Positions 1,005 through 31,134 are shown, numbered from the stretch's first letter. The stretch is DNA of 39,362 bases from a virus (IMGVR_UViG_3300050821_002969:64001-103362), one strand, 5' to 3'. Notes: generated by a model from the letters alone, not told the origin. Numbers and translations: made by a program.

Positions 1005-1019
1005 GTACATTTAACGTAC
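1005..1019 (+). promoter_or_regulatory. Palindromic motif, copy 1 (GTACATTTAACGTAC)
   Basis: Near-identical copies at 1599-1613 and 2845-2859; each lies between a stop codon and a terminator. Confidence 0.55.
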
Positions 1020-1598: not shown

Positions 1599-1613
1599 AT
1601 ACATTTAATGTAC
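1599..1613 (-). promoter_or_regulatory. Palindromic motif, copy 2 (ATACATTTAATGTAC)
   Basis: TACATT-T-AATGTA inverted repeat, identical to copy 3. Confidence 0.6.
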
Positions 1614-2844: not shown

Positions 2845-2859
2845 ATACATTTAATGTAC
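2845..2859 (-). promoter_or_regulatory. Palindromic motif, copy 3 (ATACATTTAATGTAC)
   Basis: Identical to copy 2; touches the stop of the 2859..3080 ORF. Confidence 0.6.
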
Positions 2860-6995: not shown

Positions 6996-7294
6996 TATTG
7001 TTTACCTCCGAGAAAAGCGCTCATGCTAAAACGCGGTTTGTTGCCGTCCAGCACGGTCAAATAGTTTTCGGTTTGTGGACCGTAAACCATATAGGTGCGG
7101 CTAGCGGGAATGGTTTGAACTGAGAAAACTACCGGCTTACTGCGGTAGGGCGGATTCGGATTTTTCCATGCGACAAACATTTTTGTTCTCCATGCTGCGG
7201 ATTGTGTTGCTTGCGAGATAGACGCGGGAGTATTGCGTAAGGTTGCAAGGTAAAAATTACTAGTCTGTGGACGGAACTTTACAAATGATTTCAA
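6995..7294 (-). CDS. Hypothetical protein; start uncertain
   Basis: First ORF of the leftward run. Confidence 0.4.
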   Translation of the reverse strand: MKSFVKFRPQTSNFYLATLRNTPASISQATQSAAWRTKMFVAWKNPNPPYRSKPVVFSVQTIPASRTYMVYGPQTENYLTVLDGNKPRFSMSAFLGGKQ

Positions 7295-7444
7295 ATCACA
7301 TAGTTAATAGACCGCGACCGCAATTACCAGATAGAATGCTCACGTTGCAGGACATAATTTATTACTACAACGATCTAGCTTGCTGGAAAGCGGACAAAGC
7401 AGAAGCAATCCTAGGCGGCGTATCGGATAGCTCGTGCCAATTAA

Positions 7445-7810
7445 ATAATAAGAAATAAAGTTGGCCCCAAGGAATACGAATTAGACGTTTGTCCGTTAGT
7501 GGACGAGCGTATTTTGGAGGCCCACAAAAAGGCTGGGAGAATCGAAGGTTCCACGCTGGACCTAGTTCAATCTATTATCGCGCACGAACTTGGGCATTTC
7601 GTGGCGCACATTACCAAGTGTCCCACCCACAACCAGTCAACATTCGACAAGATTCCGGTAACCATTAACGGGGAAGCTGCCGTGGTTGGCGTATCGGTGC
7701 CAGCAGAAATTAAGGCATGGACGTTGGCGGGAGAGATTTTGGGAGACAAATTAAACCAAAAACTTAGGACTGCGGCTACGGCTACTTATCTAATGGGTAG
7801 GGCCGCTTGA
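7445..7810 (+). CDS. HExxH metallopeptidase-like paralogue C; 5' end uncertain, possibly frameshifted
   Basis: IAHELGHFVA..PTHN..EIKAWTLA; similarity to paralogues (KEYELDVCPLVD) extends upstream of GTG 7499 to an in-frame TAA at 7442-7444. Confidence 0.55.
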   Translation: MIRNKVGPKEYELDVCPLVDERILEAHKKAGRIEGSTLDLVQSIIAHELGHFVAHITKCPTHNQSTFDKIPVTINGEAAVVGVSVPAEIKAWTLAGEILGDKLNQKLRTAATATYLMGRAA

Positions 7811-7836
7811 CTTTGTTCGGGGCGTGGCGTTAGATT
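7807..7836 (+). promoter_or_regulatory. Possible sigma70-like promoter (TTGACT-18 nt-TAGATT)
   Basis: Near-consensus -35 and a TAnnnT -10 just upstream of the structured region. Confidence 0.35.
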
Positions 7837-8196
7837 AGGTGCAGTGAGTTTGTGGGCGTGATCGTTTCTTGAACCGGGACGGTCCCCCACAAACCATAAT
7901 TCACCGGTTCAAATGTCATTCCTCGAACAATTCGATCCAATGCCCTTGCAGCCGGAAAGCTGTCTAGCCAAGTAGGATTGTGCCTGCAAGGGTAGATCGG
8001 TGCCAATAGGCGCGTGAGCCGTGAGCCATCGTTAGGGGATTCGACTTCTGCGGGAGCCGAAAATAGCCAAGCAACACTTCACGCTGCAAAGCGACCGACG
8101 ATGACGGCATACCGTTATTGCGCTGGCAGAGAATAGGTGTTTCACCCAATCTTTGCTGTCTCCCTCTGAATCGGGCATGACTAGAAACAAAGTCAA
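7807..8196 (+). ncRNA. Candidate large structured non-coding RNA of unknown class
   Basis: 11-bp flanking inverted repeat, two interleaved 9-bp stems, multibranch domain with GNRA loops, no credible ORF. Confidence 0.55.
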
Positions 8197-8330
8197 AAGC
8201 TAAACAAAACGCGGAGGGACTATGAATAAGCTCGAAAAGATTTACGAATCCTACTGCAAGTGGTGCGAATCTCTTGGTATTAAACCAGCGCCATTTGTGG
8301 AGTGGTTATTCTTGAAATGAAGAGGGGAAC

Positions 8331-8618
8331 ATGAAACCAGAAACACAAGCAACGATTGAACGAATAGTCCAAGCTACCGGCACATCTGCATTACGTGCGG
8401 CGGCACAGATTATCCTAGACCATTTACCAAAAGGCGAAATGGAGGAAGGCGAGGAAAAGAAAATCTACGATGGCATCCTGCTTTCTTCTAACGATACCAA
8501 CAAGGCATTCACTGCGGCCATGGTTATAAGTGGCGTATTGGAATCCTATCAAGCGCACAAGCAAGCGGCAATGAATCAATTCGCTGAGATTGCTACGCAG
8601 AAAGCGGGGAATTGCTGA
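8331..8618 (+). CDS. Hypothetical protein
   Basis: GAGGGG RBS; helical 95-aa ORF. Confidence 0.55.
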   Translation: MKPETQATIERIVQATGTSALRAAAQIILDHLPKGEMEEGEEKKIYDGILLSSNDTNKAFTAAMVISGVLESYQAHKQAAMNQFAEIATQKAGNC

Positions 8619-8849
8619 ATGAGCACAGACCTAATCGAAGGAACAAACGGCGTTTATCTCACACGATTCTATGGCGGGGAAAAGCGTGGTGTTTGCTATC
8701 AATTGGCCACCAAAGACGATAGTGGAGATTACAAATATCTCCAATTTACCGATTCACAAATGGACGATATCTGCCTCTCGTATCGCGCCTCGCGGGAAGA
8801 AATGCTGGCCAACCGAAAGGCTATTGTGGAGAAAGTATGCGGTTCCTAA
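8619..8849 (+). CDS. Hypothetical phage protein
   Basis: GVYLTRFYGGEKRGVCYQL resembles a small phage protein motif; coupled to neighbours. Confidence 0.55.
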   Translation: MSTDLIEGTNGVYLTRFYGGEKRGVCYQLATKDDSGDYKYLQFTDSQMDDICLSYRASREEMLANRKAIVEKVCGS

Positions 8850-9427
8850 CTCGCGAACAACTCCGCGCATTGCTGGAGGCGGCCAAGGCGGAGCCAAGAG
8901 AACATCTGTTGATTCTTTTGGCTTATGCCCACGGCTTGCGAAGCACAGAAGCGGTTAACGTCTGGCTTGGACCAACTACTGCGCGTATCAAGACAATCAA
9001 AAACGGCAAAGTATCCAGTGTGCCAGCGCCGTATATTGAGTCAAACACGCTTATCGTGCAAAGGTTAAAGGGGAGCGAATGCACGCGGCAGCCGTTAGTA
9101 ACTAATCCCGACCCACTATTCGACGAAGTGGGGTTGCTGGCCGGTTTGCCCAATGGCAGATTGTTTCCTGATTGGACAAGACATGACTTCAACAACCTAA
9201 TGCGTGCTTACGGCAAACGCGGCGTGATTCCACAATACCTAGCGCATCCTCACGCTTTGAAGCGTAGCATTGGTAAGCACATGGTACGCGGGGCCGGATT
9301 GGAGAATACCAGCGTATACCTTGGTCATAAAAACTGGAATAGCACCAAAAGTTACGCAAAGTCAACCGATGCTGAAGCATCGCAAGCAATGACTGAAGCA
9401 GTATTTGGCCGCGAGGAGGCGGCGTAA
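8837..9427 (+). CDS. Tyrosine recombinase, catalytic domain only (FimB/Xer-like)
   Basis: HGLRSTE, RLKGS, HPHALKRS, LGHKN..STKSY. Confidence 0.8.
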   Translation: MRFLTREQLRALLEAAKAEPREHLLILLAYAHGLRSTEAVNVWLGPTTARIKTIKNGKVSSVPAPYIESNTLIVQRLKGSECTRQPLVTNPDPLFDEVGLLAGLPNGRLFPDWTRHDFNNLMRAYGKRGVIPQYLAHPHALKRSIGKHMVRGAGLENTSVYLGHKNWNSTKSYAKSTDAEASQAMTEAVFGREEAA

Positions 9428-9854
9428 AATATTGGTGGCCTGGAAAATAGAATTACCGCCAGAGAAACAATGCATGGGCTGCGGAGTCCGGTTTAGGGGC
9501 AGAAAGAATAAACTTTACTGTTCGTCGAAATGCGGCACGCTCCACGGGGATTACGACAATGGATTCTCTTTCTCTAAATATCCAGGATTATCAACTGGAA
9601 CGATTGGGGCAATTGGCGAACTTATGGTTTCCGCTGATTTGTTGATGAAGGGATACGAGGTTTTCCGCTCCGTTTCCGCTACTTGTTCTTGTGATTTGGC
9701 CATCCTTAAAAACGGTAAATTCCTTAGAATAGAGGTTAGGTCTGGCTACAAAATTAAATCTGGAGAGCTTCGTTATCTCGGAAAAGTGCGAGCAGACCAC
9801 GTAGCCATAGTTTTCAAAAACGAAATAGAATATAGCCCAAAACTACCGGATTGA
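9405..9854 (+). CDS. PD-(D/E)XK endonuclease (group I intron-associated type) with N-terminal Zn finger
   Basis: CxxC..YCSSKC; GAIGELMVSADLLMKGYEVF..CDLAI..IEVRSG. Confidence 0.7.
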   Translation: MAARRRRKILVAWKIELPPEKQCMGCGVRFRGRKNKLYCSSKCGTLHGDYDNGFSFSKYPGLSTGTIGAIGELMVSADLLMKGYEVFRSVSATCSCDLAILKNGKFLRIEVRSGYKIKSGELRYLGKVRADHVAIVFKNEIEYSPKLPD

Positions 9855-30868: not shown

Positions 30869-31134
30869 GGCTCAACCTCGATTGGGAAGTGTTGGTTAAA
30901 CCAGAATTGGCCACGATTTCTATAGCTTTGTTGAACGTGCTCACGCCAAGTATGGGGTTGTTTGCATGGGCGGAACCCAAGACCGTAATATGCGCTCATG
31001 GGTGCGAGTTCTCCTAAGCCATAACGCGGAGCGACACTGTAATCGGAATGCATTTCTTGGCAAGTCCAATCGTTCATAAAATCTAGTGGGTGTACTTCGT
31101 CGAATGGTACGCGGCAATAGTTGCAAACTTTCAT
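30865..31134 (-). CDS. Small Cys-containing hypothetical protein
   Basis: Coupled by ATGA overlaps. Confidence 0.4.
   Translation of the reverse strand: MKVCNYCRVPFDEVHPLDFMNDWTCQEMHSDYSVAPRYGLGELAPMSAYYGLGFRPCKQPHTWREHVQQSYRNRGQFWFNQHFPIEVEP

Follow-up and report, generated by a model that had tools for sequence, protein, structure and literature searches.

In the untranslated gap behind a mini-peptidase gene of a complete phage genome we found an unclassified structured phage RNA, which belongs to no known family and has two known copies. The conserved unit is an RNA of about 190 nt on the + strand, made up of a rod that extends from the upstream stop codon and a subsequent hairpin (7941-7994). 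It is likely that this RNA structure on the + strand has been selected, and an element without function is improbable. Taken as a whole, the element is best, if tentatively, explained as an intercistronic or leader RNA that acts in cis and alternates between a rod and a pseudoknot conformer.

Location and architecture of the element

The window, i.e. the whole stretch of DNA analyzed (39,362 nt), forms the final 39 kb of an IMG/VR phage record that is complete at 103,362 bp and carries terminal repeats. A short + strand operon, covering approximately 7267-9854, is situated here between two - strand blocks. Its gene order is an HExxH mini-peptidase gene (7499-7810), an untranslated gap of 410 nt, ORFs of 32, 95 and 76 aa, a 196-aa tyrosine recombinase and a PD-(D/E)XK nuclease. 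The element and both neighboring genes have the same coding strand (+), and the TGA stop codon of the peptidase gene (7808-7810) is part of the base of the rod as well as of the left arm of an inverted repeat. The small tyrosine recombinase is found 640 nt 3' of the element. No terminator-like site was found on the + strand between 7300 and 8222, nor within the second copy of the element. This copy is located in L027, a 32-kb JGI metagenome contig from a related phage, which was reached by protein look-ups via the upstream peptidase. The features of the element and its surroundings, in window positions, are the following.

7499-7810, + strand: upstream gene, HExxH mini-peptidase; complete C-terminus, the homologues ending in ...(K/R)AA-stop, as does the phage protein (...RAA-stop)
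7806-7936, + strand: rod, an irregular hairpin of about 50 bp and about 130 nt; fold z -6.8, conserved in L027
7807-7810/7932-7935, + strand: rod helix H0
7813-7822/7921-7930, + strand: rod helix H1
7824-7831/7912-7919, + strand: rod helix H2
7833-7834/7909-7910 and 7838-7841/7902-7905, + strand: short helices of the rod
7848-7856/7886-7894 (plus 7844-7846/7895-7897), + strand: stem A of the rod
7860-7868/7876-7884, + strand: apical hairpin with the 7-nt loop UUGAACC (7869-7875)
7869-7877 with 7904-7912, + strand: stem B, alternative pseudoknot stem, perfect 9 bp, using the apical loop and 2 further nt
7807-7836, + strand: sigma-70-like match TTGACT-18-TAGATT in the 5' arm of the rod; predicted start near 7843
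7941-7951/7984-7994, + strand: stem of hairpin 2, closed by 7933-7937/7995-7999; z -4.0
8000-8212, + strand: variable untranslated 3' region, not conserved; local hairpins at 8000-8013, 8040-8061, 8082-8093, 8096-8122 and 8125-8157
7807-7817, no strand: left arm of the 11-bp inverted repeat; overlaps the TGA (7808-7810), H0/H1 and the -35-like TTGACT
8186-8196, no strand: right arm of the 11-bp inverted repeat; its forced use costs only 0.7 kcal/mol
8213-8320, + strand: Shine-Dalgarno sequence GGAGGGA and first downstream ORF (32 aa, 8222-8320)

Within the rod, H1 and H2 together give 18 bp with one 1x1 mismatch; a second stretch of 19 bp, interrupted by two bulges of one base each, is made up of stem A, one G-C pair and the apical hairpin.

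A preliminary description of this DNA had proposed a structured phage RNA of about 390 nt, bounded by the terminal repeat and by a closing helix (7915-7925/8171-8181) around a three-arm multibranch fold. The proposal stands for about 190 nt, i.e. the rod (7806-7936) and the hairpin at 7941-7994, with a stability specific to strand and to RNA and with conservation in a second phage, and does not stand for the remainder of the 390 nt. All the repeats listed there occur in the sequence, among them the perfect 11-bp inverted repeat, and so do the TTCGACT motif (8040-8046), the GCAA loop (8086-8089) and the hairpin at 8125-8157. Of the 11-bp stem, 7943-7951/7984-7992 is present, and the fold extends it to the full 11 bp (7941-7951/7984-7994). 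The sequence also contains the pair of interleaved 9-bp stems, each of them perfect (7848-7856/7886-7894 and 7869-7877/7904-7912), and both are conserved, with one compensatory pair. The closing helix, however, is imperfect when read from the sequence (5 bp, a mismatch and 3 bp including one G-U), and it is missing from the minimum-energy fold, where its 5' strand is taken up by the conserved rod helices. Neither this helix nor the terminal repeat is conserved, the 3' 200-300 nt did not align and fold no better than shuffled sequence, and the multibranch arrangement is without comparative support.

As for the terminal repeat, its left arm just corresponds to the base of the conserved rod. The end-to-end duplex was no better than that of 65 out of 1000 shuffles in the window, and no better than 789 out of 1000 in L027. 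A genome-wide motif search gave no other occurrence of the repeat in the phage genome, and with this single occurrence a genome-wide promoter or operator motif was ruled out.

Fold stability

When folded as the + strand, the whole stretch of about 390 nt reached -162.8 kcal/mol (z -5.7), with none out of 100 shuffles equally good, compared to a z of -2.1 on the - strand; 19 of the 135 pairs in this fold are G-U. The rod alone (7806-7936) reached -61.6 kcal/mol on the + strand, which was equaled by none of 200 shuffles, with a z of -2.0 on the - strand. Hairpin 2 (7933-7999) gave -28.1 kcal/mol on the + strand, while the 3' remainder was ordinary (z -2.0 for 7937-8200 and -2.5 for 8030-8172). 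The excess stability is consequently located in 7806-7936 and 7933-7999.

By folding 140-nt windows over the entire 103-kb genome, on both strands and with correction for G+C content, we found that 7801-7940 on the + strand ranks first out of 10,332. It thereby outranks the tRNA islands of the phage and the self-splicing introns in its capsid gene.

RNA or DNA

With DNA energy parameters, the rod in the window had a z of only -2.1 on the + strand and -1.2 on the - strand, and its -21 kcal/mol should be seen against -15 kcal/mol for shuffles. The corresponding DNA fold of the L027 rod had a z of -3.8. In the helices, 9 G-U pairs were found in the window and 13 in L027, while the A-C mismatches numbered 0 and 1, respectively. 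As the decay of a DNA palindrome would yield both types equally, the excess of G-U over A-C suggests selection on the + strand transcript. Together with a fold that is strong only as RNA, this asymmetry points to RNA and not DNA.

A homologue in a second phage

One independent homologue was identified, at L027:7403-7612, within a 520-nt gap (L027:7401-7920). Its first 147 nt (L027:7403-7549) match the rod at 7806-7936 with a blastn E-value of 1e-20 and 86% column identity, all rod indels are located in loops, and the same rod fold is obtained with a z of -8.5 on the + strand. The proteins of the two phages are only 35-90% identical, yet the two copies of the element share identical blocks of 21 nt (TTGACTTTGTTCGGGGCGTGG) and 25 nt (GATTAGGTGCAGTGAGTTTGTGGGC), and the 7-nt apical loop UUGAACC is invariant.

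In the cleanly aligned helices (H0, H1, stem A and the inner hairpin) there were six one-sided and two two-sided pair-preserving changes, and no disruptive ones. H0, H1 and stem A had only one-sided, pair-preserving changes (G-U to G-C etc.), while in the apical hairpin two changes were two-sided and compensatory and another three one-sided. Stem B is extended to 12 bp in L027, i.e. by three pairs, and has a compensatory change from G-C to A-U at position 9. H2 could not be aligned pair for pair, and three of its cells were scored as unpaired; we read the altered 5' strand and the extra C in the 3' strand as a probable register shift. Hairpin 2 has a counterpart in the same relative place (L027:7546-7612, z -4.5), in which the flanks AAUGCC and GAUCG are shared while the upper stem differs. 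Further 3', no colinear similarity to L027 was found, and the L027 3' part folds like shuffles (z -1.3). A short motif common to the two 3' parts (TAGCCAAG in comparison with TAGCAA) was not significant in k-mer simulations.

The search for homologues and covariation suggested in the preliminary description has thereby given one independent homologue with pair-preserving changes, while n = 2 copies are too few for a meaningful covariation statistic. The pair-preserving changes are suggestive of a maintained structure, and not proof of it.

Distribution

Three phages have the operon in synteny, namely the window phage, L027 and G001, the last being the closest complete relative. The slot of the element differs, as it directly follows the peptidase gene in the window and is found three genes further on in L027, between genes for proteins of 107 and 225 aa. 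In each phage it adjoins a stop codon, yet the upstream genes differ, and those downstream of one copy are unrelated to those downstream of the other, leaving no constant neighbor gene. The untranslated stretch is long in both cases, 410 nt in the window and 520 nt in L027.

No copy was found in G001 by either blastn or R1, a covariance model, and the element is absent from two short related contigs (L028 and L032). We conclude from these absences that it is dispensable. No recombinase was found in the examined stretch of L027, while G001 encodes the recombinase but lacks the element, which argues against any link between the two.

The R1 model found a single copy in the window phage, no copy in 151 genomes of Acidobacteriaceae and only one spurious repeat hairpin in 151 genomes of Acidobacteriota. 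Scans with exact blocks in IMG/VR viral contigs, a metagenome collection and GTDB genomes gave chance matches only. No further homologue was found in the phage collection by blastn, a neighboring protein gave nothing by tblastn in the same collection, and protein-guided searches reached no relative other than G001. A protein from a 933-bp contig is 93% identical to the product of the downstream gene. Two additional contigs, L025 and L026, have identical sequence and are re-assemblies of the same phage.

Known RNA classes and coding sequence

No match at the gathering threshold was found in the window among the 4227 models of Rfam 15, which include tmRNA, RNase P, 6S, SRP, group I and II introns, pRNA, GOLLD, ROOL, HEARO, riboswitches and ribozymes. 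At E-values up to 10, the window and L027 gave only chance matches to miRNA and snoRNA hairpins, at 14-18 bits, and the phi29 pRNA model (RF00044) matched neither copy at this threshold. ARAGORN, also with relaxed thresholds, predicted neither tRNA nor tmRNA. The statement in the preliminary description that signatures of known RNAs are lacking was thus borne out, by the covariance models it had called for as well as by ARAGORN.

Two combinations of sequences might bring tmRNA to mind. We take GGGGAUUCGAC and AAAAUAGCC to resemble the tmRNA 5' region, and GGGGAUUCGAC and GCCGAAAAUAGCC are reminiscent of the tmRNA 5' part and the pre-tag region. With negative results from ARAGORN and Rfam, and with the resembling stretch not conserved in L027, tmRNA was rejected. 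A group I intron was likewise rejected. The peptidase ends with the C-terminus proper to its family, by which the element is not an intron splitting that gene; the downstream ORF has its own Shine-Dalgarno sequence and start, and there was no match to Intron_gpI.

That the element holds no credible ORF, as noted before, agrees with our results: hidden ORFs were rejected, there being no Pfam match and no reading frame conserved across the two copies. A pseudogene remnant of genes in the cluster was rejected on the basis of a negative tblastn result. No reverse transcriptase (PF00078) was found in the complete 103-kb phage at E-values up to 1, while the controls were matched.

Alternative pairings and a promoter-like site

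The segment 7902-7912 has two conserved partners, i.e. the 5' arm at 7833-7841, by which the rod is formed, and the apical loop region at 7869-7877, by which stem B is formed. Stem B thereby competes with the helices at 7833-7841/7902-7910 and with the apical hairpin. The change from C to U at 7904 in L027 is compatible with both pairings. In an RNA starting 3' of the 5' arm, the nested fold of stem A and apical hairpin leaves the 3' partner of stem B unpaired, and by our estimate from the modeled folds the pseudoknot of stems A and B would be approximately isoenergetic with this nested fold.

The 5' arm of the rod also contains a promoter-like match, which is found again in L027 (7404-7433, TTGACT-18-TAGGAT) despite a 1-nt insertion in the -10 box. 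The totals of such matches per region were not above those of shuffles, and we regard the putative promoter as weak evidence, to be used as a lead only.

Possible function

While the structure of the element, its strand, conservation and alternative pairings are results, its transcription, promoter activity, cleavage by RNase III and influence on downstream genes are inferred. By analogy with phage T7, the element may specifically be an RNase III-type processing or stability signal, a possible but doubtful assignment. In transcripts reading through from upstream, the 5' arm would pair with the 3' arm to form the rod, which would offer two stretches of about 19-20 bp of near-continuous dsRNA, i.e. 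the kind of substrate cut by host RNase III. Cleavage would release the downstream leader from the upstream message, and the latter would keep a 3' hairpin as protection. The choice of partner by 7902-7912 would switch the RNA between rod and pseudoknot, while in any transcripts starting near 7843 the 5' partner would be missing, leaving hairpin and pseudoknot as the default.

Genes for RNase III were found in all three Acidobacteriaceae genomes searched (the putative host group) and none in the phage. The element has two properties of T7-type signals, namely an intercistronic position on the coding strand and about two helical turns of near-continuous dsRNA. In T7, the polycistronic early mRNA contains five RNase III signals, and the cleaved hairpins are 3' stability determinants (PMC3867540). 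The differing genes downstream of the two copies argue for a general expression module over a gene-specific sensor. Against the RNase III reading stand the identical blocks of 21 and 25 nt, as they show a sequence-specific constraint that is needless for a plain RNase III site. A site of that kind needs 60-130 nt, and the 220-300 nt of non-conserved untranslated 3' sequence in both phages is not accounted for. Given the identical blocks and this unexplained 3' sequence, a free trans-acting RNA remains a serious rival.

Such an RNA would be the product of a stand-alone ncRNA gene with its own promoter, starting near 7843 and having 7844-7897 as its first stable hairpin; it would form the pseudoknot or an intermolecular UUGAACC/GGUUCAA contact, and bind a protein or act in trans on a target in host or phage. 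The promoter-like match that is retained in both copies despite the insertion fits this picture, as do the portability of a module that varies in its slot and is missing from relatives, and the untranslated region of 410-520 nt in both phages. The long identical blocks and the invariant apical loop would furthermore suggest sequence-specific recognition. On the other hand, neither copy ends in a terminator-like site, the promoter-like totals do not exceed those of shuffles, and the 3' part shows neither conservation nor unusual structure. An RNA starting at 7843 would have no use for H0-H2, although the pattern of G-U pairs and the one-sided changes in these helices suggest selection. We therefore regard a stand-alone gene as fairly unlikely. 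Unlikely, too, is a new class of phage ncRNA, bistable between rod and pseudoknot or linking copies via UUGAACC/GGUUCAA, portable, and driven by a promoter of its own within the early operon of a little-known group of soil phages, which would act in trans on e.g. host RNA processing or defence. In a ligand- or protein-responsive leader, be it riboswitch-like or a translational operator, a bound factor would set the balance of rod and pseudoknot and thereby control the downstream genes. The mutually exclusive conserved pairings of 7902-7912, a change at 7904 that leaves both of them possible, and the nearly equal estimated energies of the nested and pseudoknotted forms would suit such a leader. 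The conserved bases are, however, almost all in rod pairs, whereas in known aptamers they cluster where several helices join, the downstream genes are unrelated between the phages, there is neither a terminator nor a clear anti-Shine-Dalgarno platform, and no Rfam riboswitch was matched, all of which makes it a distinctly unlikely candidate.

The remaining alternatives build on the ends of the element or on its DNA. A small non-autonomous mobile element, MITE-like or similar to the MPME elements (small mobile elements of mycobacteriophages), would carry the 11-bp repeats at its termini and use a transposase or recombinase encoded elsewhere. Perfect 11-bp repeats, of which we calculate about 0.04 to be expected in 600 nt, are indeed found exactly at the ends of the window copy, and presence varies among relatives, with different sites in the two phages. 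With one copy per genome, flanks without target-site duplication, a right repeat not kept in L027, unrelated sequence in the 3' two-thirds of the two copies and no copy found by the block scans of IMG/VR, metagenomes and GTDB genomes, we find it very unlikely. A DNA-level signal would be an ssDNA hairpin promoter or primer site, Frpo- or M13-like, or a folded site for the tyrosine recombinase, the latter having been suggested in the preliminary description. The -35/-10-like hexamers are base-paired within the long stem, as in Frpo (PMC9849209), and the small tyrosine recombinase is encoded nearby. Nevertheless, the hairpin is unremarkable with DNA parameters, 9-13 stem positions are G-T, and the hexamer arm would, by our reading of the geometry, aim transcription at the loop and away from the downstream genes. 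A tailed phage of 103 kb with terminal repeats would not be expected to pass through an ssDNA stage, and recombinase and element are not found together in L027 or G001; a role at the DNA level is accordingly highly improbable, and the suggested recombinase site was not upheld. Finally, a retron-type msr-msd RNA with a1/a2 repeats, to which a loose likeness had been seen, would agree with a terminal inverted repeat and one long hairpin. Without a reverse transcriptase in the complete genome, with a repeat that is not conserved and with a strand-specific stability that puts the long hairpin at the 5' end instead of beside the 3' repeat, its probability is next to negligible.

Comparison with known systems

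Hardly any work exists on the phages of soil bacteria, those of Acidobacteriota included, and we know of no regulatory RNA from them. If the element is a processing or stability signal, soil phages would organize operon expression at the RNA level like T7 does, with a switch between hairpin and pseudoknot added; a free RNA would instead constitute a new RNA family. In either case it offers a defined target of 190 nt, the value of which is limited by there being two known copies.

Out of the systems compared, the retron msr-msd shares with the element a terminal inverted repeat and a long hairpin in an untranslated stretch. It differs in that the phage has no reverse transcriptase, the repeat is not conserved and the hairpin is situated at the opposite end for the + strand. 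Should the internal promoter be real, the put RNAs of HK022 would provide another likeness, having two stable cis hairpins close behind a promoter in an early-type phage operon. The put sites, which act in cis as promoter-proximal antitermination hairpins, measure about 70 nt and consist of two neighboring stem-loops, without a pseudoknot. No downstream terminators to override were seen near the element, unlike the situation for put, and the likeness is by description only.

Promoters and origins on single-stranded DNA are exemplified by Frpo and by the minus-strand origin of M13. Like Frpo1 and Frpo2 of the F plasmid, the element is a long imperfect stem-loop with -35/-10-like boxes paired in the stem, a strongly conserved sequence and a specific orientation (PMC9849209). 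Unlike Frpo, its fold is strong only as RNA and rich in G-U, and the boxes do not lead into downstream genes.

The pRNA of phi29 (RF00044) is also a phage RNA of about 120 nt with its ends paired into a rod, and with complementary apical and internal loops. In pRNA these loops are AACC/GGUU and are used for intermolecular ring assembly; the counterpart in the element is the complementary and conserved UUGAACC/GGUUCAA. pRNA is to our knowledge found only in small protein-primed phages. It has a helix A and a three-way junction with complementary CE and D loops, whereas the element is unbranched, gives no match to RF00044 and is dispensable in the closest relative.

In its way of working, the element appears most like the RNase III signals of T7, judging by analogy. 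The T7 signals are roughly half its length and are situated directly before the next gene, while the element is located 290 nt upstream of the next gene, and its alternative pseudoknot and promoter-like arm are not known in T7 signals. What the two have in common is that they are irregular intergenic hairpins within operons, on the coding strand, with helices of about two turns broken by internal loops (PMC3867540). Furthermore, both begin right after the upstream stop codon, and in T7 the cleavage leaves stabilizing 3' hairpins.

Conserved gene order and exchanged modules

By comparing the plus-strand operon that surrounds the window's RNA element across three related phages, we found its gene order to be conserved between the window (7267-9854), a further locus (L002:2887-6181) and L027, a 32-kb metagenome contig from a related phage that holds the second copy of the element (L027:6001-9363). 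The anchors of this operon are a peptidase, a gene of 92-99 aa and a small tyrosine recombinase, the last of which is found in two of the three phages, while small genes are gained and lost between them. Modules swapped in this way include the RNA element. The upstream peptidase ORF (window 7499-7810) encodes 103 aa, as compared with 142-146 aa in full-length homologues; the N-terminal ~40 residues are either absent or in another frame.

Repeated motifs and other stable folds

The palindrome GTACATTAAATGTAT, which may be a transcript-end mark or a regulator site, occurs at the following positions.

Occurrences of the palindrome
Window 1005-1019: ahead of an intrinsic terminator
Window 1599-1613: ahead of an intrinsic terminator
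Window 2845-2859: ahead of an intrinsic terminator
L027:7862-7876: end of the untranslated region, immediately before the next gene

Shorter motifs recur in the 3' parts. TAGCCAAG is found twice in that of the window, both times in predicted loops (7965-7972 and 8064-8071), and TAGCAA three times in that of L027 (7682, 7701 and 7805). These recurrences were not significant in k-mer simulations, and would fit repeated protein-binding sites if further copies show the motif.

When 140-nt windows were folded across the whole genome, those ranking next in stability had z-scores of -3.7 to -3.8, and all precede the window's start. Some lie in or near tRNA islands and a permuted tRNA-like RNA.

Next most stable 140-nt windows (genome positions)
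41761-41900, plus strand
53621-53760, plus strand
30943-31082, minus strand

Tyrosine recombinase

The recombinase of the window (8837-9427) consists of the catalytic domain alone (196 aa; PF00589, 2.4e-12), and its counterpart in the closest complete relative, G001, is 40% identical. Phage integrases are seldom this short.
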